Counted from the stretch's first letter, positions 4,171 through 64,000 are shown. The stretch is 64,000 nucleotides of DNA from Candidatus Uhrbacteria bacterium GW2011_GWE2_46_68 (GCA_001002765.1 LCMS01000010.1:123-64122), one strand, 5' to 3'. Program-made: numbers and translations. Notes: generated by a model from the letters alone, not told the origin.

Positions 4171-4179
4171 GGCTGCTCC

Positions 4180-5838: not shown

Positions 5839-5914
5839 TTCTTTAACCCGAGCTCACAGGAAAACCTATGGTCTCGGGAGAAAGGCCATCACCGTCTGTG
5901 ATGGCTTTGGGGGT

Positions 5915-6874: not shown

Positions 6875-6884
6875 GACTGCCTCC

Positions 6885-15864: not shown

Positions 15865-16512
15865 TCAAAACGGCATGGTGAGATTGATAACAGGTTGAGG
15901 GGCTATTTTTAAGGCAAAATCCACGGGAATCGCCTTTCTTTCTCCGCTCCTGTCCTCAAACGCGAGGGCTTGATACTTAAGTCCATACTCATACACCTCT
16001 TTGGTAACCCGCACATCGTCCAAACAGTATTGTTTGATCTTGTCCACTTCTCCCTGTTTCCACCACTCGATTGCCTGTAGGCCATGCCCTGTTTTTCGAT
16101 GCCCCACACTTGCGGCGGCTACATCATCCAGCTTGAGCCGAAACCCCAAGGCCTTTTGGATTTCCTCCAAAATATCGAGTTGTGGAAGCTTGAGGAGATC
16201 GCCTGCATAATAGTTATTCATGATAGGCAAATCAAAACTGCGAGAGTTATACCCGATCACTCGATCACAACGCTCCAACCGCGCCCAAAGGCGAGACAAT
16301 TCATGTTCCTCAAAGACCTCGAACGTATTGGTCTCGTAAAAATAAACGCCGACAACCGAGATTTTAAACTTTGTGTAGTCATTCTCGACGTCGGCAAAAC
16401 TATTTTGCGTTTCAATGTCCAATACCACTTCGTGCTTCATACGCGGCACAGTATAACGCAAGGAAGCGATTGGATCAAAATCAAATCTCCACAACAAAAC
16501 GCGAACCCGCAT
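15865..16512 (-). CDS. DEDD-family (DnaQ-like / RNase H-fold) 3'-5' exonuclease
   Basis: Exo I LDIETQN, Exo II GYNSRSFDLP and Exo III YCLDDV motifs in the 215-aa ORF. Confidence 0.6.
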   Translation of the reverse strand: MRVRVLLWRFDFDPIASLRYTVPRMKHEVVLDIETQNSFADVENDYTKFKISVVGVYFYETNTFEVFEEHELSRLWARLERCDRVIGYNSRSFDLPIMNNYYAGDLLKLPQLDILEEIQKALGFRLKLDDVAAASVGHRKTGHGLQAIEWWKQGEVDKIKQYCLDDVRVTKEVYEYGLKYQALAFEDRSGERKAIPVDFALKIAPQPVINLTMPF

Positions 16513-17736
16513 CGGTCGAAACGTAATCCTCCGGATTGTCTACTCTTGTAACAATCCGCTTATCGGTGTGATCCCAAAAAATATTTGGAACACCTTTTGC
16601 CATAAGGGACATACACCCCGCTACATTCATTGCCAAGCTCTTTTGATATTCATACTCGTCCAAAGGTTTTCCTGTAACCTCAAGATGGGTCATGAAAGCC
16701 GTGATCCAATCCTCAAGCGTCATACCCGACTCACCAAAATAAGGAGAGCTGGGGTCTTGTCTGGAGGCTTCAAGAAAATCAATGTCATGCTGAGGTGCGT
16801 ATCTTCCCTCTCGATCAGGCCGTGGGTTCCCCCCCCCCGCACCATTCCGATCTTTTCTTTTGTAATACCGCAAAATCCCGGGGCATCATCGTGTGGAGCC
16901 TGGAGAAGAAGGACTCGCCAGCCGGAAGCGAGTTTCCCTTGATCTTGATCTTCGGCTTCAAGGATTTCTTTTTTTGTTTTTCCACCATGCCCGGGAACGT
17001 AAAAACCGGCAGACGTTGGATGATACACGACGTTATCTATAATCAAGTCATGATCTTTAAAAATAAAACGAAAATGAGTTAAGACAAAATCAGGATGTTT
17101 CTTTCTATATTCCACCAAAAACTCTTGCACCACAGAAACAAAAAAGCCTAATCCCGTGGCAAAAGGAACGAGGAGGAGCCGTGTGAATCCTTGATCTTGT
17201 TTGATTTCGAGTGTTTCGCGACGTTCGTACAATCGTTTGGCGATTTGCTCCAAAGTGGGCACGGGTCGGGAAAGATTTTTCATGTGATCCAAAAAACCTT
17301 CCTTATGTAAAAGTTCAATTTGATCCTCGTATTGTTCACGAAGATTGTAAAAATTCTCGGCATACTCGAGAGTCTCTGCCAGACTCAACTCTTCTTTTGC
17401 CGGTTCTTTGTGTTTCACGAGATATTCAAAACGCTCAAGAAGATCGGCAAGTCGTTCGAGATCTGGAGTGGAGAGTTTACTGGTCGCCTCACGGAGAGCG
17501 GCAGGTTTGGTAAGGGATTCTTTGGAAATCCCGTGAGCTTTTGTAAAATCAATGATCTCTTGCCGCAGAGTTTCAAAGTGTGCGCGATGTTGTTCGGGCA
17601 AAGAATCACGGACACTTGAAACCGAATCCATGATGGCTTCGCCAAGAATTTCCGAAGTGCGTTTGACCCCCACCTCCGCAGGGGTGGCAGAGGAAAAAGA
17701 TTCTGAAGTTGGTCGAAAAAAAGAAACCATATTCAA
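16481..17736 (-). pseudogene. member of the multi-copy paralogous family, split by a frameshift at a G10 homopolymer (minus strand)
   Basis: ORF 16720..17736 encodes the conserved N-terminal domain (EAIMDSVSSVRDSLPEQHRAHFETLRQEIIDFTKAHGI...). ORF 16481..16873 encodes the family C-terminus (DPSSPYFGESGMTLEDWITAFMTHLEVTGKPLD) in another frame. They overlap at a run of 10 C (16829-16838). Confidence 0.6.
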
Positions 17737-22977: not shown

Positions 22978-24287
22978 TTAAACGATCACAGAGGAGCGAA
23001 CGCCGATGTTCTCATTCTGATCACCAGAACCTTCTATACCGAGGCAAACACAACGAACGCCATGATTCCAAAACGCGCTTAGTACAAGGACGGAGGAAGA
23101 AAAAAAAGCGCCTGTAAGACAACTGTAACTTTCAGTGTTTATTACATTATATGCATCATCAAGCGGCTCCTCTCTCTCAGAAAAGTGTGTCATAAAAGCC
23201 ATGATCCAGTCCTCTGGAGTCATACCGAACTCTTGAAAGTAAGGTGAGTCTGGATCGTCTTGAGCGTTTTGAAGAATGGAAAGATATTCATTGGGGGTTT
23301 TGTTTGCTTCAAGAGGAGGACGTGAAGTGAGCTTTCCTTGGGGTGTTCCTTGACCTTGTCGGGGAATAGAAGAAAAACCTATGGGAGTCTCCATGTCTTG
23401 GTCATCTAGGTTTGAAGGTTGAAAAAGATGAACGGTCCAACCGGGGGTTCCCAATCCCTTCTCTCCTGCCACCCCTGCGGAGGCAGGGGTCCATCGTCCT
23501 TCTGTTTGTTCTTCGAGTATCTGTGCTTTTGTTTTCCCCCATGACCTTTTTTTTGTAAAAGACTGTGGATAATAGACAAGGTTTGGAGAATCCCCCATGT
23601 CTGCTCCTTGATAGTCTTCCCACGTCCAGAGAGGATTGTTGATATCCAAATAAAAATCAGGATGGGACCCCTTATATCTAAGAATGAATCGTTTAAACGT
23701 TTCACAAAGGGAATCAAGGCTCATACCAAAGGGAACAAGGAGGAGTTTAGTAAAGCCTTGATCGTGTTTGGTGTGGAGAGTCTCACGGCGTTCAAACAGA
23801 CGCATGGCGATACTCCTTCTTTAAGTATTCCCGCTTCTTTAAGAAGGTTGAATTGAAAAGTGTATTGTTCACGAAGATGGTAAAACTCTTCGGCATACTC
23901 GAGGGCTTCGGCATAGTCTTCTTTCTTTGGTTCCCCATTCTTGAGAAGATATTCAAAACGTTCGAGAAGATTGGCAAGTCGTTCAAGGTCTTGGGTGGAG
24001 AGTTTGCTAGTAGCCTCACGGAGAGCGGCAGGTTTAGCAAGAGCAGCTTTGGGAATCCCATGAGCTTTTGTAAAATCAATGATCTCTTGTCGCAGAGTTT
24101 CAAAGTGTGCGCGATATTGTTCGGGCAAAGAATCACGAACACTTGAAACCGAATCCATGATGGCCTCATGGAGAGTAGCGGATAAAGGAGGTTCAGAAGA
24201 CAGCGTCCCCCTTCGTCCCGCCGTTGGCGGGACTTCGGAGGGACAGTTTTCACTTTTTGTGAAAACTGTTGGTCGAAAAAGAGACAT
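22978..24287 (-). pseudogene. member of the multi-copy paralogous family disrupted by an internal deletion/frameshift
   Basis: The N-terminal part (23721..24287) and C-terminal part (22978..23805) are in different frames. Alignment with the intact copy near 56400 shows loss of about 50 nt around 23800. Confidence 0.55.
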
Positions 24288-33625: not shown

Positions 33626-34876
33626 TTAAACGATTACCGAGGTACGTATACCAAGGTACCCGGAACGACTGCGATAGTTAGACCAGACGAAATTCACTTT
33701 CTGATCATTACAGTCCCAGTATGCACACGGTACTGAACTGATAAAAGAATATACAGCTCCTAAGAAACAACTATGACCTTCTATTCTTGTAGGGTTCCAT
33801 ATATCATCAAGAGGTTTTCCTGTTTCTTGAAGATGAGTCATAAAAGCTATGATCCAATCCTCGAGAGTCATACCGGATTCATGGGAGTAAGGGGAATCTT
33901 CCTTGTCTTTGCATGCTTGAAGAGTAGAAAAATATTCATTGGCGGATTGACCTATCTCAAGAGGAGGACGCGGGGTGAGGTCTCCTTGGAGTTTTCCTTT
34001 ACCTTGAGGAGGAATAAAAGCAAAACCTAAAGAGTTTGAATCTGACGGATTTGAGGGTTGGAGAAGATGAACCGTCCAGCCATTGAAAGAATCTGGATTG
34101 TTGTCTTGTGTCTCAAGTATCTGTGCCTTTGTCTTCCCTCCATGTCTATCTTCTGTAAAAGACTGTGGCTTATAGACAAGATTGGGAAAATTTCCTGTAT
34201 CTGCTCCTTGATATCCTTCTTCTTGTATCAAAAAAGAATCATTGGTTTTAGGGGCAAAGGTTGGATGAAATTGTTTGTAAGAGAGTAAGAATTGATCAAG
34301 GGTTTTTATAAGGACGTCAAGGCTCATGCCAAAGGGAACCAGAAGAAGTTTAGTGAAACCTTGTTCGTGTTTGGTTTGGAGAGTCTCACGGCGTTCGAAA
34401 AGACGGGAAGCGATTTGTTCGAGAGTGGGGATGGGGTACTTCTTACCGTCTATCCCTGTAATCGCTCCTTCTTTGAGAATACCTGCTTGTTCAAGGAGAG
34501 CGACTTGGGAAGTGTATTGTTTTTCGAGATGATAAAACTCTTCGGCATACTCACGAGCTTCGGAAAGTTTCTCTTTCATGGGTTCTTTTTTGACAATCAG
34601 ATACTTAAAGCGTTCGAGAAGATTGGCTAGTCGTTCAAGATCGGAAGTGGGGAGTTTGCTGGCAGCCTCGCGGAGAGCATCAGGTTTGGAAAGTAATTCT
34701 CTTGGAATATCGTGAGATGCTGCAAAATCAATAATCTCTTGTCGCAGAATGTTAAAATGTTCGTGGTGTTCTTTGGGAAGAGAATCACGGACACTTGAAA
34801 CCGAGGCAAGGACGGCTTCATGGAGAGCCGGTTCTATGGAATGAGCGGATTCGGGAGACGGTCGAGAAAAAGACAT
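33626..34876 (-). CDS. multi-copy paralogous family member (intact, 416 aa)
   Basis: Conserved family N-domain (LPKEHHEHFNILRQEIIDFAASHDI..., KHEQGFTKLLLVPFGMSLD, GWTVHLLQPS, GMTLEDWIIAFMTHLQETGKPLD). Variable C-terminal region. Terminal motif GIRTSVIV. Confidence 0.7.
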   Translation of the reverse strand: MSFSRPSPESAHSIEPALHEAVLASVSSVRDSLPKEHHEHFNILRQEIIDFAASHDIPRELLSKPDALREAASKLPTSDLERLANLLERFKYLIVKKEPMKEKLSEAREYAEEFYHLEKQYTSQVALLEQAGILKEGAITGIDGKKYPIPTLEQIASRLFERRETLQTKHEQGFTKLLLVPFGMSLDVLIKTLDQFLLSYKQFHPTFAPKTNDSFLIQEEGYQGADTGNFPNLVYKPQSFTEDRHGGKTKAQILETQDNNPDSFNGWTVHLLQPSNPSDSNSLGFAFIPPQGKGKLQGDLTPRPPLEIGQSANEYFSTLQACKDKEDSPYSHESGMTLEDWIIAFMTHLQETGKPLDDIWNPTRIEGHSCFLGAVYSFISSVPCAYWDCNDQKVNFVWSNYRSRSGYLGIRTSVIV

Positions 34877-38390: not shown

Positions 38391-39650
38391 TTAAATCATC
38401 ACCGAGGTGTGAACACCAAAAAGCTCGCTTCGACGGTTGGTGCCACTCTGACCAATCTCTACCCGTCGCCATGTATGATTCCAACACGCGTCTGATAAAG
38501 AGACAGCGTAAGGAAAAAGAGATCTCATAAGATAAGAAGCGCTTTCTGTATTGTTTACAATATTATCCAAAGGTTTTCCTGTTTCTTGAAGATGAATCAT
38601 AAAGGCTATAATCCAATCCATGGGAGTTAATCCGGACTCTAGAAAATAAGGGGAATCAGAATTGTTTTGAACCTCCCGAAAAATAGAAAAATACTCCGAG
38701 GGCGACTTTCCCGCCTCAAGAGAAGGGCGACCTCCTTGGGATGTCCCTTGACCTTCGCGAGGAATAGAAACAAAACCTTTGGAATACTGATCGGAGGGAT
38801 CCGAGGGTTGAAAAAGATGAACCGTCCAACCTGAAAAAAAATCTTCAGCATCTCTTTGTTTGTTAAGAATCTCTGTCTTCGTTTGACCCTGATGAGACCT
38901 ATCGAGAAACAATGGATCGTAAATAATTACGTTAGATCCTTTGGTATCCACTCTTTCGGAAAAACTTATAAAAAAAGGATTATTTGCATTGAGATCAAAA
39001 GAGGGGTGAACCTCTTTGTAGTCACGAAGAAATTGTTTAAGAACATCCGCAAGAACTTCGATGCTCATGCCAAAGGGAACAAGAAGGAGTTTGGTGAAAC
39101 CTTGGTCATGCTTGGTTTTTAGTTTCTCACGACGCTCAAACAAACGAACAGCGATTTGTTCCAAAGTGGGGATGGGATAGGTACGTTTATCTATACCTCG
39201 GATGGCTCCTTCTTCGAGAATACCGACTTGTTCAAAAAAGGAAACCTGAGAATTATATTGTTCCTTGAGGTGATAGTATTTCTCGGCATATTCAAGAGGA
39301 TCGGTAGGTTCTTTGGGTTCTTTCTTTACAATCAGATACTGAAAGTGCTCAAGAAGATAAGTGAGTCTCTCAAGGTCTGGGATGGAAAGTTTGCTGGTCA
39401 CCTCGCGCAGGAGGTCGGGTTTGGCGAGGGATTTTTTTGTGATCCCGTGAGCTTTTGTAAAATTAATGATCTCTTGTCGCAGAGTTTCAAAATGCGCGCG
39501 GTGTTGTTCAGGAAGAGAATCACGAATACTTGAAACCGAATCCATAATGGCTTCGCCAAGGATTTCCGAAGTGCGTCTAACCCCTACCTCCGCAAGGGCG
39601 GCAGACGGGGAAGATTCCAAACTTGGTCGAAAAAGAGACATAGATATCAA
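38391..39650 (-). CDS. multi-copy paralogous family member (intact, 419 aa)
   Basis: Family N-domain (EAIMDSVSSIRDSLPEQHRAHFETLRQEIINFTKAHGI...). C-terminal motif GVHTSVMI. First of three tandem copies. Confidence 0.7.
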   Translation of the reverse strand: MISMSLFRPSLESSPSAALAEVGVRRTSEILGEAIMDSVSSIRDSLPEQHRAHFETLRQEIINFTKAHGITKKSLAKPDLLREVTSKLSIPDLERLTYLLEHFQYLIVKKEPKEPTDPLEYAEKYYHLKEQYNSQVSFFEQVGILEEGAIRGIDKRTYPIPTLEQIAVRLFERREKLKTKHDQGFTKLLLVPFGMSIEVLADVLKQFLRDYKEVHPSFDLNANNPFFISFSERVDTKGSNVIIYDPLFLDRSHQGQTKTEILNKQRDAEDFFSGWTVHLFQPSDPSDQYSKGFVSIPREGQGTSQGGRPSLEAGKSPSEYFSIFREVQNNSDSPYFLESGLTPMDWIIAFMIHLQETGKPLDNIVNNTESASYLMRSLFPYAVSLSDACWNHTWRRVEIGQSGTNRRSELFGVHTSVMI

Positions 39651-39653
39651 AAG

Positions 39654-40946
39654 TTAAAGCATCACCGAGGAACGCACACCAGTATCCACAACCCAACCAA
39701 GAAGACTATTCCCGAAGAGATGAATCCGACGACTGCCACGGCTCCAACGCGCTCTTGGCACAAGGTAGGAGAAAAGAAAAAAAGCACCTGTAAGATTAGA
39801 GGCGCTCTCTATGCCATTTAGATAGTCATCCAGTGGTTTTCCTGTTTCGGAAAGATGAATCATAAAGGCTGTGATCCAATCTTCCGGAGTCATACCTGTT
39901 TCACCATGATAGGGAGAATCTTTATCGTCTTGAGCATTTTGAAGAATGGAAAGATATTCATTGGGAGTTTTGCTTGCTTCAAGAGAAGGACGAGGGACGA
40001 GGTCTCCTTGGGATGTTCCTTTACCTTGTCGGGGAATATGAGCAAAGCCCATGGGAGCTTCAGTATCTTGTGAGTCAGAGTTTGATGGTTGAAAAAGATG
40101 AACCGTCCAACCGGGAAAGGAATCTTGATTGTCTTCTTGTTCCCTAAGTATCTCCATCTTGGTCTTTCCTTGATGACCCTTTTCATCAAAAGACTGTGGA
40201 TAATAGAAAAGATTTGGAGAATCCCCCGTGTCTGCTCCTTGATAGTCTCCCGATGTGAAGAGAGGCATGCTGGTATCAAGATCAAAAGAGTGGGACTTTT
40301 TATATTTGATGAAAAATTGTTTGATGGTTTCTTGGAGAGCATCAAGGCTCATCCCAAAAGGAACGAGAAGAAGTTTGGTAAAACCTTGGTCGTGTTTGGT
40401 TTTGAGAGTCTCGCGGCGTTCAAACAGACGAGAAGCTATTTGTTCGAGAGTTGGCACGGGATATTCATGACCGTCTATACCTAGGATGACTCCTTCTTTG
40501 AGGATGCCCACTTCCTCAAGAAGCTCTACTTGAGAATCGTATTGCTCACGAAGATGATAAAACTTCTCTCCATACTCAATGGCTTTGGCAGGGTCTATCT
40601 CTTCTTTCTTTGGTTCTCCATTCTTGAGAAGATATTCAAAGCGTTCGAGAAGGAGAGCGAGTCGTTCAAGGTCTTGGGTGGAGAGTTTGCCGGTCACCTC
40701 GCGCAGGAGATCAGGCTTGCCAAGAGATTCTCTTGGAATCCCGTGAACCTCGGTAAAAGTGATGATCTCTTGTCGCAGAGTTTCAAAGTGCGCGCGATGT
40801 TGTTCGGGCAAAGAATCACGGACACTTGAAACCGAATCCATGATGGCCTCACCAAGGATTTCCGAAGTGCGTCTAACCCCTGCCTCCGCAGGGACGGCAG
40901 AGGAAAAAGATTCTGAAGTTGGTCGAAAAAAAGACATAGATATCAA
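39654..40946 (-). CDS. multi-copy paralogous family member (intact, 430 aa)
   Basis: Family N-domain. Terminal motif GVRSSVML. Separated by 3 bp from both flanking paralogs. Confidence 0.7.
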   Translation of the reverse strand: MISMSFFRPTSESFSSAVPAEAGVRRTSEILGEAIMDSVSSVRDSLPEQHRAHFETLRQEIITFTEVHGIPRESLGKPDLLREVTGKLSTQDLERLALLLERFEYLLKNGEPKKEEIDPAKAIEYGEKFYHLREQYDSQVELLEEVGILKEGVILGIDGHEYPVPTLEQIASRLFERRETLKTKHDQGFTKLLLVPFGMSLDALQETIKQFFIKYKKSHSFDLDTSMPLFTSGDYQGADTGDSPNLFYYPQSFDEKGHQGKTKMEILREQEDNQDSFPGWTVHLFQPSNSDSQDTEAPMGFAHIPRQGKGTSQGDLVPRPSLEASKTPNEYLSILQNAQDDKDSPYHGETGMTPEDWITAFMIHLSETGKPLDDYLNGIESASNLTGAFFLFSYLVPRARWSRGSRRIHLFGNSLLGWVVDTGVRSSVML

Positions 40947-40949
40947 AGG

Positions 40950-42299
40950 TTAAATGATCACCGAGGAACGAGCGCCGGCGTTCTTGTCGTCATCACGAAG
41001 ACTGCTCCTACTGAGGCAAGCTTGTCGTTCAAAACGCCCCCAACATGCATTCGATGTAGGAATGGAAAGAGGGAAAAAAACTCCTGCAAGACAAGAAATG
41101 CTTTCTTTATTATTTTGCCAGTTATCCAATGGTTTTCCTGTTTCAGAAAGATGAATCATAAAGGCCATGATCCAATCTTCCGGAGTCATGCCTGTTTCAC
41201 CGTGATAGGAAGAGTCTTTATCACCTTGAGCTTTTTGAAGAATGGAAAGATATTCAATGGGAGATTTTCCTGTTTCAAGAGGAGGTCGAGGGACGAGGTC
41301 TCCTTGAGGTGTTCCTTGTCCTTCTCTGGGAATAGAAGAAAAGCCCGGGGAATGTGGATTGGAAGGATCAGAAGGCTGGAGAAGATGAACGGTCCAACCG
41401 GGGGTTCCCTCTCCCTTCTCTCCTGCCACCCCTGCAAAGGCAGGGGTCCATCGTCCTTGGGCTTGTTCCTTAAGTATCTCCATCTTGGTCTTCCCCCCAT
41501 GACCCTCTCTTGTAAAAGACTGTGGATAATAGACAAGATTTGGGGAATCCCCTGTGTCTGCTCCTTGATATCTTGGCCATGTCCAGAGAGGAATACTGGT
41601 ATCAAGACCAAAAGAGGAGTGGGACTCTTTATATTTGATGAGAAATTGTTTGAGTGTTTCTCTGAGAGTATCAAGACTCATCCCAAAGGGAACAAGAAGA
41701 AGTTTGGTAAAACCTTGGTCGTGTTTGGTTTTAAGTTCCTCACGGCGTTCAAACAGACGTATGGCGATTTGTTCCAAAGTGGGGATGGGATAGATTTTAC
41801 CGTCTATACCTAGGATAGCTCCTTCTTTAAGTATTCCTGCTTCCTCAAGAAGCTCTACTTGAAAATTATATTGTTCACGAAGATTGTAAAGACGTTCAAT
41901 TTCTTGAAGATGTTTCGGAAGTTTTTCTTTCTTTGGTTCCCCGTTCTTGAGAAGGTATTCAAAACGTTCGAGAAGATCGGCAAGTCGTTTGAGATCTGGA
42001 GTGGAGAGTTTGCCGGCGGCCTCGCGGAGAGCGGAGGGTTTGGAAAGTGTGTCTTTGAAAATCCCATGAACCTTTGTAAAATCAATGATCTCATGTCGCA
42101 GAGTTTCAAAATGCGCTCGGTGTTGTTCGGGAAGAGAATCGCGGACACTTGAAACAGAATCCATGATGGCTTCACCAAGAAGTGCAGAAGACACCGGATC
42201 CCCGCCTGTGCGGGGATGACGGTTGCGGGAAGAGTGTGACTCCACAGGGGTAACGGAGGAACGAGGAGAAAATTCAGGAGATGAACGAACGAAAGACAT
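40950..42299 (-). CDS. multi-copy paralogous family member (intact, 449 aa)
   Basis: Family N-domain with a divergent leader. Optional insert GRWTPAFAGVAGEKGEGTP. Terminal motif GARSSVII. Confidence 0.7.
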   Translation of the reverse strand: MSFVRSSPEFSPRSSVTPVESHSSRNRHPRTGGDPVSSALLGEAIMDSVSSVRDSLPEQHRAHFETLRHEIIDFTKVHGIFKDTLSKPSALREAAGKLSTPDLKRLADLLERFEYLLKNGEPKKEKLPKHLQEIERLYNLREQYNFQVELLEEAGILKEGAILGIDGKIYPIPTLEQIAIRLFERREELKTKHDQGFTKLLLVPFGMSLDTLRETLKQFLIKYKESHSSFGLDTSIPLWTWPRYQGADTGDSPNLVYYPQSFTREGHGGKTKMEILKEQAQGRWTPAFAGVAGEKGEGTPGWTVHLLQPSDPSNPHSPGFSSIPREGQGTPQGDLVPRPPLETGKSPIEYLSILQKAQGDKDSSYHGETGMTPEDWIMAFMIHLSETGKPLDNWQNNKESISCLAGVFFPLSIPTSNACWGRFERQACLSRSSLRDDDKNAGARSSVII

Positions 42300-42311
42300 A
42301 GTGTCTCCTCC

Positions 42312-42920
42312 TTAAAGCGAGTAAGTAAATAAACTGATAATTGCAAACACGATGGCCAAAGAAAATGTGCCGATGGAAAAAGGAATGAACAAATCAATCC
42401 CCGCCCAGACAGCAATAAGAAGCAGTGCGACTCCGATCACTTGCAACACCATTTTTATTTTTCCAAACACGTTGGCCGAAGTGATAGTTCCATTGCTCTT
42501 TCGAAAATATCCGACAAACACAATAATGGATTCGATCATCACGATCAAAATCCCAAAAACAATATTGATATGTTTGACAACAATGAGAAGCACGACCGTG
42601 GAAATTAAAAGCTTGTCCGCCACAGGATCATACAGGGTTCCCCAATCCGTGATTTGTTTACGAATACGTGCCAGACTTCCATCCACCGCATCGGTCAGTG
42701 CGGAAAATAAAAAAAGCGGCGCCCCAACCGCATAATTTCCAATATACAAAAAATAGAGCACAAACGGGATGGTGAGAAAACGCAACACGGTGACCATGTT
42801 GGGAGAAATAAAACGAGGAATGAGAGGAATAATGGTATAACGCATGACATAATCATGCGGATACCACTTGGAGGGATCGCGGTGCATTTTCTCCATACAA
42901 CTTGCAATGATACAATACAT
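42312..42920 (-). CDS. CDP-alcohol phosphatidyltransferase family protein
   Basis: Motif DAVDGSLARIRKQITDWGTLYDPVADK, i.e. D-x2-DG-x2-AR-x8-G-x3-D-x3-D. 202 aa with multiple TM helices. Confidence 0.75.
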   Translation of the reverse strand: MYCIIASCMEKMHRDPSKWYPHDYVMRYTIIPLIPRFISPNMVTVLRFLTIPFVLYFLYIGNYAVGAPLFLFSALTDAVDGSLARIRKQITDWGTLYDPVADKLLISTVVLLIVVKHINIVFGILIVMIESIIVFVGYFRKSNGTITSANVFGKIKMVLQVIGVALLLIAVWAGIDLFIPFSIGTFSLAIVFAIISLFTYSL

Positions 42921-52926: not shown

Positions 52927-55008
52927 TTATAATGCAATGGTTCCGCCGAAACGGGATGACTCATCTCCCACAAAAAATCCACCGATGACATCACCGTTTT
53001 TATTAAACACTCGGACATGCGGTCCTCCGCTTGAAACGGGAATCGTGTAAATTTCACTCTCCCCATTTTGATCAAGATCACCCACAACTGTCTGCACCCC
53101 GCCTAAAAAATCGATGGGATAGGTAATGAAAGATTGCTGCAGCGCTCCAAACGCATCATGCACAAACACGCGTGAAACCGTTCCCTGACCAAAAGAAATC
53201 ACAATATCATTGTGTCCGTCTCGATCCACGTCTCCCACGCTCACCAAACGCTCGCTTGTGTGTAACCCCAGAGGATCATCGAGCGTGGACACATACTTTC
53301 CTGTCCCTTCGTACACGCGCACAGCCCCCTCGCTCCCCCCCCGACAGACAACAAGTTCGTCCGCGCTATCCTCGTCCAAATTTCCAGCCTCCACACGAAC
53401 AGATGCGCTCGTCCGATCAAAAGGACTGAAAAATCCAATCAATACTCCATCTTTTGTAAAATAACGAACTTGTCCTGTTCCACCCTCATCTTGCGACACA
53501 ATAATTTCTTGCAATCCATCTCCATTGATATCCCCGGTTGTCACAAACAATCCCGATCGATCATCTTCATCAAAAGCAAAAAATTGTGAAAGCACTCGAC
53601 CACTTGGATCAAACACGCGCACCTGCGGACCTCCTCCCGGACCTGGTACTGTCACAATCTCTCCGTCTCCGTCCCCGTCGGTATCGGTAACGGTCATGCG
53701 CACTCCTCCCAAAAATGATTCCGCATAGGCGAAAAAAGAATGCAACACATCCCCATCTTTTGTTACCTCAAAAATCAACGGAGCAGATCCTGCACCTTGA
53801 GCAAAGATAAGCTGAGAAGAAAGATAACCATCAGTGACAACGCGACCCTCTCCTTTTTCCATCAATTGTCTGGACACATCCAAGGCACTGGCAATATCAA
53901 GACGACCATTTCCCATAGCTTGGCGCGCCAAAGCTGAAGATTCTTCCACAGGGTCAGCGGAAAGACGCAATAAGCGAATAATCTGCTCGGGTGTCAACGT
54001 GGGATAGGCGGCTTTCATGAGTGCAGCCGCTCCGGCAACTAAAGGAGCCGCGACCGATGTCCCCTCCCAAGGTCCGCCATAGGGAGTGGAAAGCAAAAGA
54101 TAATCCGGATCATGATACACCGTGCCGAGTATATCTATTCCCGGAGCGGAAATATCCACGCAACCTTTTCCATAATTGGAAAAAGAAACTTTCGCATCTG
54201 TGCGATCGGTTGCCCCAACCCCGATCACCATATTCTCGCTTTGAAATAAATCATAACAAGCGGGAAAAACCGGAGACAATAAAAGATCCGTGTTGTCATT
54301 TCCAACCGATGTGACAATCACAACCCCCTGGTCATACGCCCAACGAATGGTTTCCAAAAGTTGAGTGTCTTGTTGCGTGGTGGTAAAACTCAAATTGATG
54401 ACATCCGCGCCATTATCAACCGCGTAGCGAATCGCCTGACGCACATCATACGTATACCCTGTCCCATCGGTGTTCAAAATACGTAGTGGCATAATTTCCA
54501 CATCCCAAAGAATGCCCGCAATCCCTTTTCCATTATCTCCTACCGCACCGATAAGTCCTGCCACCAAAGTCCCGTGAGAAACAATGGTGTCGGAAAAATT
54601 TTCCGTGATCTCGGGAGAAGGGTTCCCATTCCCGCTCACAAAATCCCATCCATCATAATCATCTTCAAAACCATTGTGATCATTATCAATACCATCTTCG
54701 GGAATCTCATTTTCATTTTTCCAAAGATTGCCTTCCAAATCGGGATGATCCAGATCAATACCTGAATCGAGAACGGCTACAATGACATCGGAGGAACCTG
54801 TGGACATATCCCAAGATGCCGGGGAACGCAACGTTTCCAAATACCATTGTCCTGAATACAAAAAATCATTTGGCACCAAAGCCGCAGTAGTAAGAGGAAA
54901 AAAGAGAAAAATAACGCTTAAAATTGTGAGGATCTGTCGATACAGCCTTTGCATAACGATTCGTATTGTAGCTTGGGATGTCTTAATTGGAAACCTTGAC
55001 CGCTTCAC
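52927..55008 (-). CDS. subtilisin-like serine peptidase (S8) with C-terminal FG-GAP/beta-propeller-like repeats (tandem paralog)
   Basis: VAVLDSGIDLDHPDL, HGTLVAGLIGA, GTSVAAPLVAGAAALM. Same architecture as the upstream gene. Confidence 0.8.
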   Translation of the reverse strand: MKRSRFPIKTSQATIRIVMQRLYRQILTILSVIFLFFPLTTAALVPNDFLYSGQWYLETLRSPASWDMSTGSSDVIVAVLDSGIDLDHPDLEGNLWKNENEIPEDGIDNDHNGFEDDYDGWDFVSGNGNPSPEITENFSDTIVSHGTLVAGLIGAVGDNGKGIAGILWDVEIMPLRILNTDGTGYTYDVRQAIRYAVDNGADVINLSFTTTQQDTQLLETIRWAYDQGVVIVTSVGNDNTDLLLSPVFPACYDLFQSENMVIGVGATDRTDAKVSFSNYGKGCVDISAPGIDILGTVYHDPDYLLLSTPYGGPWEGTSVAAPLVAGAAALMKAAYPTLTPEQIIRLLRLSADPVEESSALARQAMGNGRLDIASALDVSRQLMEKGEGRVVTDGYLSSQLIFAQGAGSAPLIFEVTKDGDVLHSFFAYAESFLGGVRMTVTDTDGDGDGEIVTVPGPGGGPQVRVFDPSGRVLSQFFAFDEDDRSGLFVTTGDINGDGLQEIIVSQDEGGTGQVRYFTKDGVLIGFFSPFDRTSASVRVEAGNLDEDSADELVVCRGGSEGAVRVYEGTGKYVSTLDDPLGLHTSERLVSVGDVDRDGHNDIVISFGQGTVSRVFVHDAFGALQQSFITYPIDFLGGVQTVVGDLDQNGESEIYTIPVSSGGPHVRVFNKNGDVIGGFFVGDESSRFGGTIAL

Positions 55009-55591: not shown

Positions 55592-56752
55592 TTAGATGAG
55601 AACCGAGGTGCGAATACCTCTATACCAATAAGTACCGTACCCTTCATCCAATATTGCCTCATGGCAATCTCTATCCCAATAGGCTAGAGGTAAGTAAAGA
55701 GCAAAAGGAAAAAAGGCCCCGATAAGATAGGATTGTTTTTCCATACCGTTTTTATAATCATCCATTGGTTGTCCCTTTTCTGTAAGGTGGGTCATAAAAG
55801 CAATGATCCAATCTTCGGGAGTAAGTCCTGTTTCACCATGATAGGGAGAGTTTTTATCACCTTGAGCTTTTTGAAGAATGGAAAGATATTCATTGGGAGA
55901 TTCTCCTGCTTCAAGAGGAGGTCGAGGGACAAAGTCTCCTTGGGGTGTTCCTTGGCCTTTGCGGGAAATGGAAGCAAAGCCCGGGGAATCTGAATCAGAA
56001 GGATTCGAGGGTTGGAAAAGATGAACAGTCCACCCTGGAAAGGAATCTTGATTGTCTTCTTGTTCTTTGAGTATCTGTGCTTTTGTCTTTCCTTGATGAC
56101 CTGTCAGATCAAAAGACTGTGGCTTGTAAACAAGGTTTGGGGAATCTCCTGTGTCTCCTCCCCACAATGCACAAAGAGATTCATGGGCATTGAGATTAAA
56201 AAAAGAATTCTTTTGTTTGTAAGCAATAAGAAATTGTTTGAGGGTTTCTTGGAGAGCATCAAGGCTCATCCCGAATGGAACAAGGAGGAGTTTGGTAAAA
56301 CCTTGGTCGTGTTTAGTAGAAAGTTCCTCGCGGCGTTCAAACAGACGCATGGCGACTTGTTCCAAGGTGGGGATGGAATAGGTATTACCATCTATGCCTA
56401 GGATAGCTCCTTCTTTGAGTATTCCTACTTCCTTAAGAAGGTTAAATTGAAAAGTGTATTGTTCACGAAGACTATAAAGACGTTCAATTTCTTGAAGATG
56501 TTCAGGGAATTTTTCTTTCTTTGGTTCCCCATTCTTAAGAAGATACTCAAAGCGTTCAAGAAGGAGAGCGAGTCGCTCAAGATCTGAAGTGGAGAGTTTG
56601 CTAGTAGCCTCGCGCAGGAGGTCAGGCTTACCAAGAGATTCTCTAGAAATCCCGTGAGCTTTTGTAAAATCAATAATCTCTTGTCGTAAAGTTTCAAAGT
56701 GTGCGCGATATTGTTCGGGCAAAGAATCACGGACACTTGAAACCGAATCCAT
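55592..56752 (-). CDS. multi-copy paralogous family member (386 aa; leader removed by deletion, starts at the conserved MDSVSS)
   Basis: Family N-domain and terminal motif GIRTSVLI. Upstream remnant MSLCGTKGDSVF* shows a deletion relative to the leader of the copy at 24287. Confidence 0.65.
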   Translation of the reverse strand: MDSVSSVRDSLPEQYRAHFETLRQEIIDFTKAHGISRESLGKPDLLREATSKLSTSDLERLALLLERFEYLLKNGEPKKEKFPEHLQEIERLYSLREQYTFQFNLLKEVGILKEGAILGIDGNTYSIPTLEQVAMRLFERREELSTKHDQGFTKLLLVPFGMSLDALQETLKQFLIAYKQKNSFFNLNAHESLCALWGGDTGDSPNLVYKPQSFDLTGHQGKTKAQILKEQEDNQDSFPGWTVHLFQPSNPSDSDSPGFASISRKGQGTPQGDFVPRPPLEAGESPNEYLSILQKAQGDKNSPYHGETGLTPEDWIIAFMTHLTEKGQPMDDYKNGMEKQSYLIGAFFPFALYLPLAYWDRDCHEAILDEGYGTYWYRGIRTSVLI

Positions 56753-56837: not shown

Positions 56838-58109
56838 TTAAACCACCACCGAAGACCGCAAACCAATGGCCCCAACCCGAGTACGAGGACCACCCCTGTC
56901 GAGGTTAGCCCGACAGCTATCACGGCTCCAAGACACGCAAGGCACACGGGAGGAGAAGCGAAAAAAAACTCCTGTAAGGTAAGAGATACTTTCTTTGTTT
57001 GTGGGATTCCATGCATCATCAAGAGGTTGTCCTGTTTCAGAAAGATGAATCATAAAAGCTGTGATCCAATCTTCGGGAGTCATGCCTGTTTCACCATGAT
57101 AGGGAGAGTCTTTGTCACCTTGAGCTTTTTGAAGAATGGAAAGATATCCATTGGGGATTTTACCTGCTTCAAGAGGAGGTCGATCCCTCCCTTCGCGAAG
57201 GGAGGGATGGGGTGTTCCTTGGCCTTCTCTGGGGATGGGAGCAAAGCCTTTGGGAGTTTCAGTGTCTTGTTCGTTCGGGTTTGATGGTTGAAGAAGATGA
57301 ACAGTCCAACCGGGGGTTCCCAATCCCTTCCCTCCTGCCACCCCTGCAAAGGCGGTCCCGCCTGTGGCGGATCCCGCCGTAGGCGGGAGGGTCCATCGTC
57401 CTTTGGCTTGTTCCTTAAGCATCTCCATCTTGGTCTTTCCTTGATGATCTTTCGGATCAAAAGACTGTGGATAGTAGACAATGTCTGGAAAATCTCCTAT
57501 GTCTGCTCTTTTATATCCTTCACCCGTCCAGAGAGGATCTTCGGTATCAAGATCAAATGAGGAGTGGGACTCTTTATATTTGAGTAGGAATTGTTTGAAG
57601 GTTTCTCGGAGAGTATCAAGGCTCATGCCAAAGGGAACAAGAAGAAGTTTGGTAAAGCCTTGGTCGTGTTTAGTCTCGAGAGTCTCACGGCGTTCAAACA
57701 GACGCATGGCGATTTGTTCCAAGGTGGGGATGGGATAAGTGTTACCGTCTATGCCTAGGATGGCTCCTTCTTTGAGGATGCCTACTTCTTTAAGAAGGTT
57801 AAATTGAAAAGTGTATTGTTCACGAAGATTGTAAAGACGCTCAACTTCTTGAAGATGTTTAGGGAGTTCTTCTTTCTTTGGTTCCCCATTCTTAAGCAGA
57901 TATTCAAAACGTTCAAGAAGGAGAGCGAGTCGTTCAAGATCTTGGGTAGAAAGTTTTTTTGTAGCCTCGCGCAGGAGGTTAGGCTTGCCAAGAGATTCTC
58001 TGGAAATCCCATGAACTTTTGTAAAATCAATGATCTCTTGTCGCAGAGTTTCAAAATGTGCGCGATATTGTTCAGGTAAAGAATCGCGAACACTTGAAAC
58101 AGAATCCAT
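56838..58109 (-). CDS. multi-copy paralogous family member (423 aa, starts at MDSVSS)
   Basis: Family N-domain. Insert with tandem palindromic units (TLPPTAGSATGGTAFAGVAGGKG). Terminal motif GLRSSVVV. A leader remnant without a start codon abuts the uvrD stop. Confidence 0.7.
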   Translation of the reverse strand: MDSVSSVRDSLPEQYRAHFETLRQEIIDFTKVHGISRESLGKPNLLREATKKLSTQDLERLALLLERFEYLLKNGEPKKEELPKHLQEVERLYNLREQYTFQFNLLKEVGILKEGAILGIDGNTYPIPTLEQIAMRLFERRETLETKHDQGFTKLLLVPFGMSLDTLRETFKQFLLKYKESHSSFDLDTEDPLWTGEGYKRADIGDFPDIVYYPQSFDPKDHQGKTKMEMLKEQAKGRWTLPPTAGSATGGTAFAGVAGGKGLGTPGWTVHLLQPSNPNEQDTETPKGFAPIPREGQGTPHPSLREGRDRPPLEAGKIPNGYLSILQKAQGDKDSPYHGETGMTPEDWITAFMIHLSETGQPLDDAWNPTNKESISYLTGVFFRFSSRVPCVSWSRDSCRANLDRGGPRTRVGAIGLRSSVVV

Positions 58110-58192
58110 GACGGCTTCGTGGAGAGTAGCGGATAAAGGAGGTTCAGAAGACAGAGTCCCCCTTCGTCCCGCCGTTGGCGGGACTTCGTTTA

Positions 58193-60262: not shown

Positions 60263-60323
60263 TTACAGATCCCCTATGACCCCTAAGACCTGTCTTTGGA
60301 GGATAAGAAAAACCCCGAGCACT

Positions 60324-60713
60324 TCAGATGCAGGGGGCGCGTGGAAAAAAGGCAATATAGGTAAGACGTTGTGATAATTCGTGATGCTGTGCACAAAGGA
60401 TCATCAAAGAAAGCAAGACCTTACTTTTTTCTTTTTCTCCCAAGAGATGGGCATCGCGTATTCCTACATCTACGATCATCCGTCGCCTTCTGTGCGTGCA
60501 AGCGATCATACGCCGCACCTCGACCGATCCGTCTTTGGAACAAAGAACATATTGGCGCAACGCCGCTTGGTCGAAAAAAAAGATTTCCTCATGTGCCCCA
60601 ATCACGATCTCTCTTCCTTCCCATCCGTGGAAAAAATAGCGCTCAAAAAATCCAAATCCATACCGTCGCTTTGTAAACCATCGCACCCCGACCAAATGAG
60701 CAGACGAAGTCAT
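60324..60713 (-). CDS. hypothetical protein
   Basis: 129-aa ORF. A 171-aa plus-strand ORF overlaps it, so the coding strand is uncertain. No motifs recognised. Confidence 0.25.
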   Translation of the reverse strand: MTSSAHLVGVRWFTKRRYGFGFFERYFFHGWEGREIVIGAHEEIFFFDQAALRQYVLCSKDGSVEVRRMIACTHRRRRMIVDVGIRDAHLLGEKEKSKVLLSLMILCAQHHELSQRLTYIAFFPRAPCI

Positions 60714-60747
60714 GATGCACCTCTGAAAGGATTGGGGGGTCTATTGG

Positions 60748-60803
60748 GGGGTCAGGTCCGGACATCGGACTTTTTCCAAAAAGTCCGATGTCCGGACCTG
60801 ACC
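60748..60803. repeat. 56-nt near-perfect palindrome (28-nt arms) sharing the GGGGGTCAGGTC end motif with the 45.1-kb MITE-like element
   Basis: GGGTCAGGTCCGGACATCGGACTTTTT | CCAAAAAGTCCGATGTCCGGACCTGACCC. It is preceded by a TGGGGGGTC direct duplication and lies between mltG and the downstream ORF. Confidence 0.6.
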
Positions 60804-60808
60804 CTACA

Positions 60809-62919: not shown

Positions 62920-62925
62920 AGTTAT

Positions 62926-64000
62926 TTAAATGATCACTGAGGAACGTAAGCCAAATCCAATATCTGCAATATCACAACGATGACTTCCCGCATAGACCTG
63001 TAACAAACTGGAGTTCCAATCCATAAAAGGCGTACGAAGAGAAGAAGGAAAAAAAGCTCCCGTAAGATAAGAGGTATTTATGTCGCGAGTTAATGATGCA
63101 TCTATGGGTTTTCCCGTTTCTACAAAATGTGTCATAAAAACCATGATCCAATCTTCAGGAGTGAGGCCGGATTCTTGGAAGTAGGGGGAGCTAGAGTTGC
63201 CTCGAGCTTCTTCAAGAATGGAAAGATATTCCGTGGGAGTTTTGTTTGCTTCAAAAGGGGGACGGAAATTCTCGTCTCCTCGGAGTGTTCTTTGGTCTTT
63301 TTGGGAAATGGTGGCAAAGCCTTTGAGAGTTTTGGTATTTGAGGGTTGAAAGAAATGAGCCGTCCAGCCTGGAAAAAAATTTTGGTTATCCTCTTGTCCC
63401 TCAAGTATCTGCATTTTGGTCTTTCCTCGATGACCATTTTCTTCAAAAAACTTTGGATAATAAACAAGACTGGGAGTATCTCCTCTGTCTGCTCCTTGAT
63501 AACGCTTCTGAATGGCAAAAGAATAGGAATCGCTAATATCAAGATCGGGATGAGACTCTTTGTAAGAAAGAAAAAATTGTTTGAACGTTTCTATGAGAAC
63601 ATCAAGGCTCATACCAAAGGGAACGAGAAGGAGTTTGGTAAAGCCTTGGTCGTGTTTGGTGCGGAGGATTTCTCGGCGTTCAAAGAGACGAATGGCGATT
63701 TGTTCGAGTGTGGGGATGGGATAGGTATTACCATCTATGCCTTTGATCGCATCACCCATGAGAATCCCGACTTGTTCAAGAAGTTCGACTTGAGAATCGT
63801 ATTGTTCTTTGAGGCGATAGTGTTCCTCGGCATACTCAAGGGCTTCTTTGTTTGTCCAAGGTTCCTTCTTAACAATGAGGTGTTCAAAGCGCTCAAGAAG
63901 ATTGGCAAGCCGCTCGAGGTTGGGAGTGGAGAGTTTCTCGGCAGCTTTGCGGAGGAGATCGGGTTTGGCAAGCGCTTCTCTTGGAATCCCTTGAGCTTGT
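62926..64000 (-). CDS. multi-copy paralogous family member, 5' end beyond the window edge
   Basis: The reading frame is open from 62926 to the window end. The upstream in-frame translation (…LSTPNLERLANLLERFEHLIVKKEP…) matches the family N-domain. Terminal motif GLRSSVII. Confidence 0.6.
   Translation of the reverse strand, partial: QAQGIPREALAKPDLLRKAAEKLSTPNLERLANLLERFEHLIVKKEPWTNKEALEYAEEHYRLKEQYDSQVELLEQVGILMGDAIKGIDGNTYPIPTLEQIAIRLFERREILRTKHDQGFTKLLLVPFGMSLDVLIETFKQFFLSYKESHPDLDISDSYSFAIQKRYQGADRGDTPSLVYYPKFFEENGHRGKTKMQILEGQEDNQNFFPGWTAHFFQPSNTKTLKGFATISQKDQRTLRGDENFRPPFEANKTPTEYLSILEEARGNSSSPYFQESGLTPEDWIMVFMTHFVETGKPIDASLTRDINTSYLTGAFFPSSLRTPFMDWNSSLLQVYAGSHRCDIADIGFGLRSSVII

Follow-up and report, generated by a model that had tools for sequence, protein, structure and literature searches.

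A tandem-arrayed gene family of an Uhrbacteria genome as probable targets of diversity-generating retroelements

Three genes lie head to tail at 38391-42299 of a 64,000-nt stretch of DNA (the window) from Candidatus Uhrbacteria bacterium GW2011_GWE2_46_68 (LCMS01000010.1:123-64122, GCA_001002765.1), a tiny bacterium of groundwater. Their encoded proteins are alike over most of their length and differ near the C terminus, which raises the question of what kind of family this is and what makes one end of its proteins vary. The genes very probably belong to a CPR-wide protein family whose members are the variable-protein targets of diversity-generating retroelements (DGRs). A DGR ordinarily works through a reverse transcriptase (RT) and its partner Avd, which copy a template repeat (TR) into cDNA with misincorporation opposite template adenines; this cDNA replaces the variable region (VR) of a target gene. 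To our knowledge, DGRs are the only known natural prokaryotic system that purposely rewrites the binding surface of a protein. CPR bacteria are rich in DGRs, and the targets in these bacteria lack domains and are apparently cytoplasmic.

The paralogs, their arrays and their age

The five open reading frames singled out by the sequence-only reading (38391-39650, 39654-40946, 40950-42299, 55592-56752 and 56838-58109) are all present on the minus strand and are clearly paralogs; their whole-ORF amino-acid identity to copy A is 56-61%, and mean column identity across the five is 70%. The family is larger than these five. The window holds nine members, every one on the minus strand and two with frameshifts, and at least 13 copies occur in ~85 kb of the same strain when contigs beyond the window are included.

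The triple array is opened by paralog C (40950..42299, minus strand; 449 aa), whose start ATG follows an AAGGAGG and lies 12 nt past the stop of a CDP-alcohol phosphatidyltransferase gene. It continues with B (39654..40946, minus strand; 427 aa from the ATG at 40937; UX57_C0010G0042) and is closed by A (38391..39650, minus strand; 416 aa from the ATG at 39641). The spacers of 3 bp first described for this array hold as long as the frames are called from TTG starts, but a conserved ATG with the motif MS[LF]FRP, 9 nt downstream of these mechanically called starts, gives a spacer of 12 nt with the layout TAA-CYTTTGATATCT-ATG. Most junctions in the arrays of related strains have the same 12 nt. 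Within the triple array, a strong Shine-Dalgarno sequence occurs only before the first gene, C, and this feature, the 12-nt spacers and the shared strand make co-transcription plausible.

The gap of 85 bp between D (55592..56752, minus strand; 386 aa) and E (56838..58109, minus strand; 423 aa) was described correctly. Both genes start at MDSVSS; the 85 nt upstream of D are what remains of the N-terminal leader, degenerate and out of frame, and the leader ATG of E is missing through a deletion of ~57 nt relative to L084 and L085. Paralog F (33626..34876, minus strand; 416 aa) has an upstream ATG start (MSFSRP), and this MS.. ATG must be its start because Leu replaces Met at its MDSVSS position. 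Paralog G (62926..64000, minus strand) runs off the window's end; L085, a contig of the same strain, shows it as gene 4, the last of a four-copy tandem array that extends past the window. Paralog H (22981..24287, minus strand) is probably a pseudogene, given a frameshift and deletion near 23800. Two perfect palindromes lie in the H leader. Paralog I (16484..17736, minus strand), of a divergent subfamily with the intact L077 as its closest relative, is split by a frameshift near 16860-16885 and is probably also a pseudogene.

Misassembly of repeat families is common in short-read metagenomes and two copies are frameshifted, which might suggest that the array is an artefact of assembly or annotation, in which repeats were collapsed or joined as chimeras or the ORFs called are no true genes. 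We give this explanation practically no weight, because order and sequence recur in the assemblies of other samples: an independent metagenome assembly (L001) has the same C-B-A array and is colinear with the window across 21,188 nt at 99.958% identity, and the right-hand end of the window recurs without a mismatch in L084 and L085 (100% over 5.8 kb). Hundreds of homologs with a body under purifying selection (dN/dS 0.25-0.32) and a confident structure model also argue against it. The array is genuine.

Its origin by recent tandem duplication, as had been proposed, does not agree with a mean body pS of ~0.5 (dS ~0.8) and an amino-acid identity of only 53-64% among A, B and C; these values indicate old arrays. 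Gene conversion has kept the arrays mosaic. All nine differences between the window and L001 over 21,188 nt sit inside 53 bp of B (39885..39937, minus strand), and this strain-specific patch is a short gene-conversion tract. In L084 the E ortholog has been swapped out between flanks that are 100% identical, identical cassettes sit on different bodies in L039/L049 and in L048/L064, block swaps are visible in P0004 and P0005, and the recombination statistic is significant (PHI p = 0.002). Clustered differences, block swaps and PHI together demonstrate that the family is a gene-conversion mosaic. The VR and 3' tail of B (last 48 codons; 39657..39800, minus strand) are 94% identical in nucleotides to those of L040, and the gene bodies of the two are far more diverged than this cassette (pS 0.34). 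A, B, C and F have identical VRs in the window and in L001, which gives no direct sign of ongoing turnover in these copies.

Protein architecture and the variable region

No signal peptide or membrane segment is predicted in the family proteins. They consist of an N-terminal helical region, which is restricted to this Uhrbacteria lineage, a conserved alpha/beta core of ~300 residues and a C-terminal beta-hairpin that carries the VR. Searches of Pfam, NCBIfam, PADLOC and PHROGs gave no match to the core domain, and Foldseek found no solved or viral structure that resembles it. The only matches of profile searches among PDB sequences, of the full-length profile to HP0242 and of the C-terminal one to ubiquitin, were spurious. 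An AlphaFold model from a diverse alignment, with a pLDDT of 87.4, supersedes an earlier model from a shallow alignment (pLDDT 52.7) and places the VR on strands 392-399 and 404-411. Along these strands, entropy shows conserved and hypervariable residues in alternation, and the randomised residues presumably occupy one solvent-exposed face of the modelled hairpin. A C-type lectin fold was not detected in the VR-bearing domain by Foldseek or by profile search. The distant members P0179, P0192, P0238, P0239 and P0243 carry an N-terminal AAA_5 domain, and the neighbourhoods of distant single-copy homologs showed no conserved partner gene. In the CPR targets that Paul et al. 2017 reported, according to a later study (10.1101/2023.09.22.558884), the variable domain is joined to an N-terminal AAA ATPase. 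The window copies have no ATPase domain and are thus ATPase-less relatives of proteins with that architecture.

The sequence-only reading described a conserved N-terminal part followed by about 50 completely different residues. The body is indeed conserved (64-70% identity) and the tail is variable, but the VR covers only ~35 residues (about 100 nt) and is followed by a conserved terminal strand, G.RSSV.I. Over the 21 residues from an invariant W to the terminal G.R.SV, identity among the window copies is 15%. The last ~25 nt (GGN GYG CGN TYY TCG GTG RTG RTT TAA) are conserved in all copies, decayed ones included, and so are the 12 nt past the stop. This 3' tail also encodes the final beta-strand of the model.

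The dN/dS contrast between body and C-terminal region that had been suggested as a check fails on the window copies, which are saturated (VR pS 0.73, dN/dS 0.40), but is informative among cassettes that share a backbone, where dN/dS is ~2. In these alignable cassettes, pS is 0.16 in the VR versus 0.31-0.55 in the body and pN is 0.28 versus 0.11-0.22; some pairs differ by 20-23 non-synonymous changes and by no synonymous change. Because the synonymous divergence of the cassettes is lower than that of the gene body, selection alone is insufficient. Diversification is focused on the C-terminal module, as had been proposed, but its cause is most likely adenine mutagenesis by a DGR rather than diversifying selection.

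The adenine signature was drawn from 13-16 backbone-sharing paralogs, with the DNA of 44 close relatives, as the window's own copies alone mismatch at almost every VR column. Diversity at codon positions 1, 2 and 3 is 0.32, 0.44 and 0.17 in the VR versus 0.21, 0.15 and 0.35 in the body (13 shared-backbone cassettes, including E of the window). Adenine is found in none of 54 invariant VR columns, versus 144 of 423 (34%) in the body (Fisher p = 1.5e-9), and among the 72 invariant columns of 16 intact VRs it occurs in only two, both in the stop codon. These counts demonstrate a variation that is specific to adenines. Ordinary mutation is also seen, in 18 columns that have two states, neither of them A, and in 10 third positions that vary. 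The 97 relatives fall into 82 distinct cassette clusters versus one body cluster.

The match of each VR to the common skeleton separates the copies. E, at 98%, is apparently a live DGR target of the window; its VR and conserved 3' tail (56841..56984, minus strand; ...VPCVSWSRDSCRANLDRGGPRTRVGAIGLRSSVVV) differ from other intact cassettes at the inferred template-adenine columns. B, at 84-89%, looks recently targeted with decay begun, and the VRs of A (0.68), C (0.71), F (0.64), G (0.66) and H (0.75-0.79) look decayed and off the skeleton. The VR of D is two residues shorter and diverged, and was left unscored owing to the indel. Judged by these matches, the three genes of the triple array (A 0.68, B 0.89, C 0.71) would be mostly decayed or following other templates. 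Three copies just beyond the window, on the same-strain contig L085, match at 1.00, 0.98 and 1.00 and, like E, look currently or recently targeted; in one sample, 8 of 12 VRs retain at least 95% of the skeleton.

Templates, the retroelement and competing explanations

Rebuilding the template by placing A at the variable columns gives the peptide YWNRDNRQANINRND, with the stretch ...VPYEYWNRDNRQANINRNDPHNQDENIG..., in agreement with the actual TR peptides of L014 and L032 (VPNAYWNRDNRQANLNRNDVDNRNDNCG). TR/VR pairs lie downstream of family members in L014, L017, L023, L026, L029 and L032, and in these loci and L091 template adenines account for 90-100% of the TR/VR mismatches. L026 has one TR and two VRs. 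L091, an Uhrbacteria MAG, combines a VR-TR pair in which 22 of 23 mismatches are at A with bAvd and an RT (PF00078). Avd and/or RT are present in most of the seven template-bearing loci, with the RT motif IGN[LI]TSQ...YGDD and with PF00078 in the full-length RT of L032 and its relatives, and in 8 of 31 other CPR loci tblastn with RT and Avd placed them beside members of the family. The linkage of the family to DGRs is demonstrated in these other genomes. A C-terminal VR whose differences fall on template adenines is seen directly in the homologs, and the indirect but specific evidence from the window's lineage indicates the same there.

In the 64-kb window and in all loci of its lineage among the ~470 kb compared, no TR was found. 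Pfam searches of large ORFs and tblastn with RT and Avd detected neither protein in the window; tblastn against the ~470 kb likewise found neither in this lineage, long contigs of related strains included, and no RT from the window's lineage is among the 120 matches listed in the RT search. One viral contig matched the VR skeleton, but this single match, in an unrelated GC-rich phage gene, was due to chance. As no template or RT was found in the window, the element must act in trans, and a working RT and TR would be expected elsewhere in this genome; the element could perhaps also have been lost, the pattern then being a relic.

An ordinary multigene family, in which tandem duplicates accumulate point mutations under diversifying selection on a C-terminal binding loop with no retroelement involved, would be in keeping with the dN/dS of ~2 in alignable cassettes, the exposure of hypervariable residues on a single hairpin face and a window without RT or TR. 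Under such selection, however, cassettes would not be expected to show less synonymous (0.16 vs 0.31-0.55) and third-position (0.17 vs 0.35) divergence than the body, and selection cannot account for invariant columns free of adenine (0/54 vs 34%). Moreover, the A-substituted consensus gives authentic TR peptides and real TR/Avd/RT cassettes adjoin homologs, so that we consider this explanation highly improbable.

Somewhat more weight, although still little, is due to a shuffling of cassettes as in antigenic variation, with gene conversion as the main source of diversity and the DGR signature as a relic of a lost element. Conversion is observed directly and supported by PHI (p = 0.002), the same cassette occurs on different bodies, four VRs are unchanged between two strains, most window VRs have decayed, and the lineage's own RT and TR were not found in ~470 kb or among the 120 RT matches listed. 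Conversion by itself, however, would carry the variable residues along, whereas many VRs have a perfect skeleton (1.00), each with its own variable residues, while their bodies differ at pS 0.3-0.5. Perfect skeletons with differing variable residues require that one template was copied repeatedly and recently, with randomisation at its adenines, and 82 distinct cassettes in 97 relatives are far above what a reshuffled fixed repertoire would hold.

For the family as DGR targets, the following course can be proposed. The conserved 3' end (the G.RSSV.I-stop tail) would guide the cDNA into the VR, and randomisation at adenines would alter one face of the hairpin and leave the scaffold intact. The proteins may serve as variable ligand binders or sensors. 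The family has grown in this lineage into head-to-tail arrays with 12-nt spacers, and gene conversion between paralogs shuffles blocks, up to entire cassettes. The many copies with a common VR skeleton imply a single trans-acting template outside the window. A typical CPR genome has ~1 Mb. A bolder and rather doubtful extension is that one trans template in an ultrasmall genome serves at least a dozen dispersed targets in tandem arrays, predicted to be cytoplasmic, as a repertoire of intracellular binders, with conversion moving fresh cassettes, copies continually decaying and a VR domain that is not a recognisable C-type lectin. If true, the set would rank with the largest known to be served by one template, and the domain would be a scaffold new to DGR hypervariation.

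Significance and comparison with known systems

DGRs in CPR bacteria are already known, and what is moderately interesting here is the scale and the mixture of live and decayed targets. A whole family of hypothetical proteins can be recognised as DGR targets with no retroelement nearby, from invariant columns that lack adenine, a reversal of the diversity among codon positions, and variation from which the template can be rebuilt. Such recognition matters because the published DGR survey pipeline, by its own statement, misses remote targets (PMC8144416). The family receives a function-level label for ~770 unlabelled protein clusters (50% identity), and at least 13 such genes take up a sizeable share of the coding capacity of the genome. 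Live and decayed targets with gene conversion on top provide a natural system for the gain, keeping and loss of targets.

The closest parallels are the DGR targets of CPR/Patescibacteria, both those of Paul et al. 2017 and those of clade 2 in Roux et al. 2021, a clade that is restricted to CPR and has targets without recognisable domains (PMC8144416). Features in common are a VR at the extreme C terminus, adenine-specific variation, TR, Avd and RT beside homologs, the absence of a signal peptide, of membrane segments and of any recognisable domain, the fusion of some relatives to an AAA ATPase, and several targets per genome, remote ones included. Different here are the lineage-specific helical N-terminal region in place of an ATPase, the tandem arrays (at least 13 copies in ~85 kb) with intact and decayed VRs mixed, a template that was not found in the window or compared loci, and a C-type lectin fold that was not detected.

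The prototype DGR variable proteins, Mtd of Bordetella phage BPP-1 and TvpA of Treponema denticola (cited in PMC7159879), have a C-type lectin/FGE-like fold. The present family shares with them a conserved scaffold, a dozen or more randomised residues from AAC/AAT-type template codons near the C terminus and the motif plan W...R..R....P..R....G.R..V, but has no detectable sequence or Foldseek similarity to them. It comprises many paralogous targets predicted to be cytoplasmic, whereas Mtd and TvpA are single targets on a phage tail and as a surface lipoprotein.

In Thiohalocapsa PB-PSB1, multi-target DGRs diversified in trans have been proposed as antigen sensors with a link to MoxR/STAND NTPases (10.1101/2023.09.22.558884). 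There, as here, several targets share one TR and match it wherever it has no adenine, some loci have no RT or no TR of their own, targets are unequal in activity, many are cytoplasmic and an association with MoxR-type AAA+ ATPases exists. Thiohalocapsa PB-PSB1 differs in being a multicellular gammaproteobacterium with DGRs of clade 5 and clear C-type lectin domains, in contrast to the ultrasmall CPR host, the tandem paralogs and the window without an NTPase partner.

Borrelia vls, Neisseria pilS/pilE and Anaplasma msp2 are contingency gene families driven by gene conversion. They resemble the present family in their many paralogs, segmental non-reciprocal exchange, mosaic genes and some pseudogenes. 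Here, however, no single expression site is fed by silent cassettes, most copies are full-length with starts, a surface location is not predicted, and mutagenesis by a retroelement would be the main source of diversity.

Gene copies, starts and setting

The five open reading frames proposed in the sequence-only reading are present in the window, all on the minus strand: copies A (38391-39650), B (39654-40946) and C (40950-42299) of the C-B-A array, and the pair of D (55592-56752) and E (56838-58109). They are indeed paralogs: over whole ORFs, the other copies are 56-61% identical to copy A at the amino-acid level, and column identity averages 70%. Five is an undercount, as tblastn of the window recovered a further four, also on the minus strand: copy F (33626-34876), copy G (62926 to the window end), copy H (22981-24287), which is broken by a frameshift and a deletion, and copy I (16484-17736), broken by a frameshift. 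The array is not an assembly artefact: L001, assembled independently, aligns colinearly with window 29654-50841 (21,188 nt, 9 mismatches, 0 gaps). Window 58189-64000 shows 100% identity in two further loci, L084 and L085.

The 3-bp spacers reported between the array genes arose from TTG starts chosen by mechanical ORF calling. A conserved ATG, opening MS[LF]FRP, lies 9 nt downstream of the TTG starts, and the spacers measured from it are 12 nt long (TAA-CYTTTGATATCT-ATG), a length also found at most array junctions of related strains. Copy F carries a leucine in place of the internal methionine of the MDSVSS motif found in other copies, so the upstream ATG is its only possible start. Between E and D lie 85 nt of degenerate sequence, left over from the N-terminal leader and no longer in frame. 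The leader ATG of copy E is gone, as window 58110-58192 lacks about 57 nt that in L084/L085 (20015-20071) sit right after the UvrD stop codon; window copy E thus begins at the internal MDSVSS methionine. Its annotated length in other assemblies is 455-466 aa.

Family members are repeatedly located 3-12 nt past the stop codon of unrelated, co-oriented housekeeping genes, such as those for an HtrA-like protease, PolA, PGK, or CDP-alcohol phosphatidyltransferase (L006/L007 9997-10001; L089 9995-10001; L084 9995-10001; window 42299-42312). This placement suggests that they could be expressed by read-through from host operons, or that it reflects a preferred mode of insertion.

Copy B corresponds to public protein UX57_C0010G0042 of Candidatus Uhrbacteria bacterium GW2011_GWE2_46_68 (CPR/Patescibacteria), and all named matches among its relatives are annotated as hypothetical or uncharacterized. 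Searches of Pfam, NCBIfam, PADLOC, and PHROGs gave no match for the core domain. When 1.84 billion representative proteins were searched with a profile, 774 clusters were recovered, which share a core of the C-terminal ~300 residues; in several long members, an N-terminal AAA_5 ATPase precedes it. Homologs occur CPR-wide, usually as single genes amid housekeeping genes without a conserved partner, and the window paralogs have housekeeping as well as envelope genes around them. The family, otherwise restricted to the CPR, was also found at about five copies each in several MAGs labelled “uncultured Gammaproteobacteria” (CAZCLT01, CAYPRR01, and others; L008-L013, L024, L025, L028, L030, L033, L035, L036), labels that may result from mis-binning or misclassification.

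No reverse transcriptase (RT) or integrase was found among the large window ORFs tested, and no copy contains a hydrophobic segment suggestive of a signal peptide or membrane helix. Window 1-10000 has a G+C content of 0.50-0.58, versus 0.43-0.48 in the remainder, and may be a foreign or differently evolving segment. Its genes include those for an OmpA-domain protein, a VWA protein, and ABC transporter components, along with two ORFs without a Pfam match (2132-3427 and 3424-4170). The window also holds a subtilase fused to FG-GAP repeats (52927-55008) and a VWA-domain protein (5915-6874). Conflict systems linked to ATPases, as discussed for targets of diversity-generating retroelements (DGRs), typically have VWA and MoxR-type partners; no link was established between the paralogs and these subtilase/FG-GAP or VWA-domain proteins of the window.

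Age of the copies and the variable C-terminal tail

The sequence-only reading attributed the arrays to recent tandem duplication. The copies are old, with a body pS of ~0.5 and dS of ~0.8, and body dN/dS is 0.25-0.32 among window copies. Gene conversion is evident at several levels. The window and L001 differ at nine sites over 21,188 nt, all inside 53 bp of copy B (39885-39937), where several alternative bases are the states of other paralogs. Compared with E, its L084 ortholog has 32 mismatches and 6 gaps in 800 nt, and the flanking 5.8 kb are identical. Near-identical family proteins differ in whole blocks, the same cassette occurs on different bodies (L039 with L049; L048 with L064), and the PHI test for copies A-F gave p = 0.002.

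A first AlphaFold model, built on a shallow alignment, was poor (pLDDT 52.7). With 19 distant homologs added to the alignment, a second model reached a pLDDT of 87.4 and a pTM of 0.74. In it, a helical N-terminal region leads into an alpha/beta core, and the C-terminus forms a beta-hairpin (strands 392-399 and 404-411) followed by a last strand (423-426). Residues K181, Q184, D236, Y245, K260, R316, E346, E352, D353, and D370 of the core domain are conserved. Foldseek searches of the PDB and viral models returned nothing similar, and a profile of the C-terminal 115 residues matched no solved C-type lectin DGR protein.

Variability is concentrated in this tail. At 70% identity, 91 of 97 close relatives fall into one cluster by their gene bodies, while the 21 residues between invariant W398 and G420 split the 97 into 82 clusters. 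Entropy alternates along both hairpin strands, with V393, A396, W398, I405, and L407 conserved and L392, R395, R397, S399, H406, F408, and N410 hypervariable (up to 2.5-3.7 bits); the hairpin thus presents one hypervariable face on a scaffold that is itself conserved. A dN/dS comparison of tail and body had been proposed as a check for diversifying selection. In the window copies alone it was uninformative (pS 0.73, dN/dS 0.40), as the tail is saturated, and the window contains no additional repeat that could be a template. A retroelement was at first discounted on these two grounds, and the reading was revived by the DNA of 44 close relatives from metagenomes.

In the alignable cassettes of these relatives, pooled synonymous divergence is 0.16, below the 0.31-0.55 of the body, and non-synonymous divergence is 0.28, above the body's 0.11-0.22, resulting in a dN/dS of ~2. 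Certain cassette pairs show 20-23 non-synonymous and 0 synonymous differences. Among 13 backbone-sharing cassettes, including window copy E, diversity at codon positions 1/2/3 is 0.32/0.44/0.17, versus 0.21/0.15/0.35 in the body, and the columns take the forms NN(C/T), GNT, GNG, CNT, and CNG. Adenine occupies 0 of 54 invariant cassette columns, compared with 144 of 423 in the body (Fisher p = 1.5e-9); across 16 intact cassettes, the 72 invariant columns hold two adenines, both of the stop codon. With A placed at the variable columns, the predicted template peptide reads ...VPYEYWNRDNRQANINRNDPHNQDENIG.... As nucleotides, the predicted template is approximately GTG CCT WAC GAG TAT TGG AAC CGT GAC AAT CGG CAG GCA AAC ATC AAC AGG AAT GAT CCT CAT AAT CAG GAT GAG AAC ATT GG, and 38 columns are read as template adenines.

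Retroelement cassettes beside family members

All fetched loci were scanned for repeat pairs with adenine-biased mismatches. Template repeats (TRs) were found 250-400 nt downstream of the C-terminal variable region (VR) of distant family members in L014, L017, L023, L026, L029, and L032, where template adenines take 90-100% of the mismatches. In L026, one template serves two paralogs. Genes for an Avd-like RT partner and an RT (motifs IGN[LI]TSQ and YGDD) follow the template, and PF00078 was detected in the RT of L032 and in its relatives. L091, an Uhrbacteria MAG contig, carries a complete cassette of family member with VR, TR, bAvd, and RT, with 22 of 23 TR/VR mismatches at adenines. The template rebuilt for the window lineage from variability alone is in close agreement with the authentic template peptides found in L014 and L032 (VPNAYWNRDNRQANLNRNDVDNRNDNCG). 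By these sequence signatures, the family is a DGR target family.

The Saccharibacteria DGR of L014 (2859-3512) looks degraded, as its TR is directly followed by a fragment with only RT motifs 5-7 (RYGDDFIVIS...) and a partial Avd; 15 of 15 TR/VR mismatches are still adenine-specific. A second family member, L016, lies directly upstream of this locus. The VRs of L018 (~2300-2409; NAYWNRDNRQANVDRNNPDNRNDNCG) and L023 (2217-2338) are nearly as asparagine-rich as a template, and such limited diversification points to a target that is inactive or was reset recently.

Intact and decayed variable regions in the window

By skeleton match, the fraction of shared invariant VR columns retained by a copy, E ranks first (0.98), followed by B (0.89), H (0.79), C (0.71), A (0.68), G (0.66), and F (0.64). 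The VRs of A, C, F, and G count as decayed; the cassette of D is two residues shorter and has no score. L085 is identical to the window across aligned stretches and thus represents effectively the same strain. It carries three further intact cassettes (1.00, 0.98, 1.00), located at L085:3370, L085:11165, and L085:12491, and a decayed cassette scoring 0.70. At least 95% of the skeleton was kept by 8 of 12 cassettes in one sample, with different variable residues in each. Between the window and L001, copies A, B, C, and F do not differ in their VRs, so turnover is unsupported in those four copies. Similarity between some decayed cassettes (VPSTFWDRNFHYAHFGYNSPHDLSGNM and VPSIFWNYNFPHACFDLVSPRDLSGNM; L084/L085 13844, L056 1147) raises the possibility of a second skeleton group and, with it, of a second template in the window lineage.

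GC-rich, short-loop hairpins occur in the N-terminal leader regions of A (39560-39610), B (40860-40905), C (42190-42240), and H (24190-24280), and upstream of E (58150-58190). The hairpin of A, B, and I is CCCTGC-GGAG-GCAGGG, with G-T wobble variants, that of C is ATCCCCGC-ACAG-GCGGGGAT, and that of E and H is GTCCCGCC-AAC-GGCGGGAC. H has a second element, CAGTTTTCAC-AAAAA-GTGAAAACTG, a 10-bp palindrome without mismatches. Where copies stand in tandem, the hairpins lie ~60 nt downstream of the preceding copy's VR. They might be small palindromes that were inserted, structures in RNA, or hairpin/cruciform elements that aid DGR homing.

Neither the window nor any examined locus of its lineage contained a template, an RT, or an Avd, and none of the matches listed in the RT search came from this lineage. 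Unless it was lost recently, the retroelement of the window targets would thus have to lie elsewhere in the genome and act on them in trans. Tandem paralogy and a hypervariable C-terminus, both proposed earlier, were borne out; recent duplication with diversifying selection was not. The window genes are better explained as an expanded family of DGR variable proteins, most likely arranged as tandem arrays of remote targets in which intact and decayed VRs adjoin. Gene conversion is overlaid on the retro-mutagenesis proposed for these arrays.

DGR variable proteins are an already-known kind of system in CPR bacteria. One DGR clade is restricted to them, its targets lack recognisable domains, and remote targets are undetectable by the published DGR pipeline (PMC8144416). 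Elsewhere, trans action was inferred from VRs that match the template at all non-adenine sites (10.1101/2023.09.22.558884). The assignment of the family as a DGR target fits this literature. A role as a variable intracellular binder or sensor is favoured for the window proteins, a proposal based on their likeness to ATPase-linked DGR targets.
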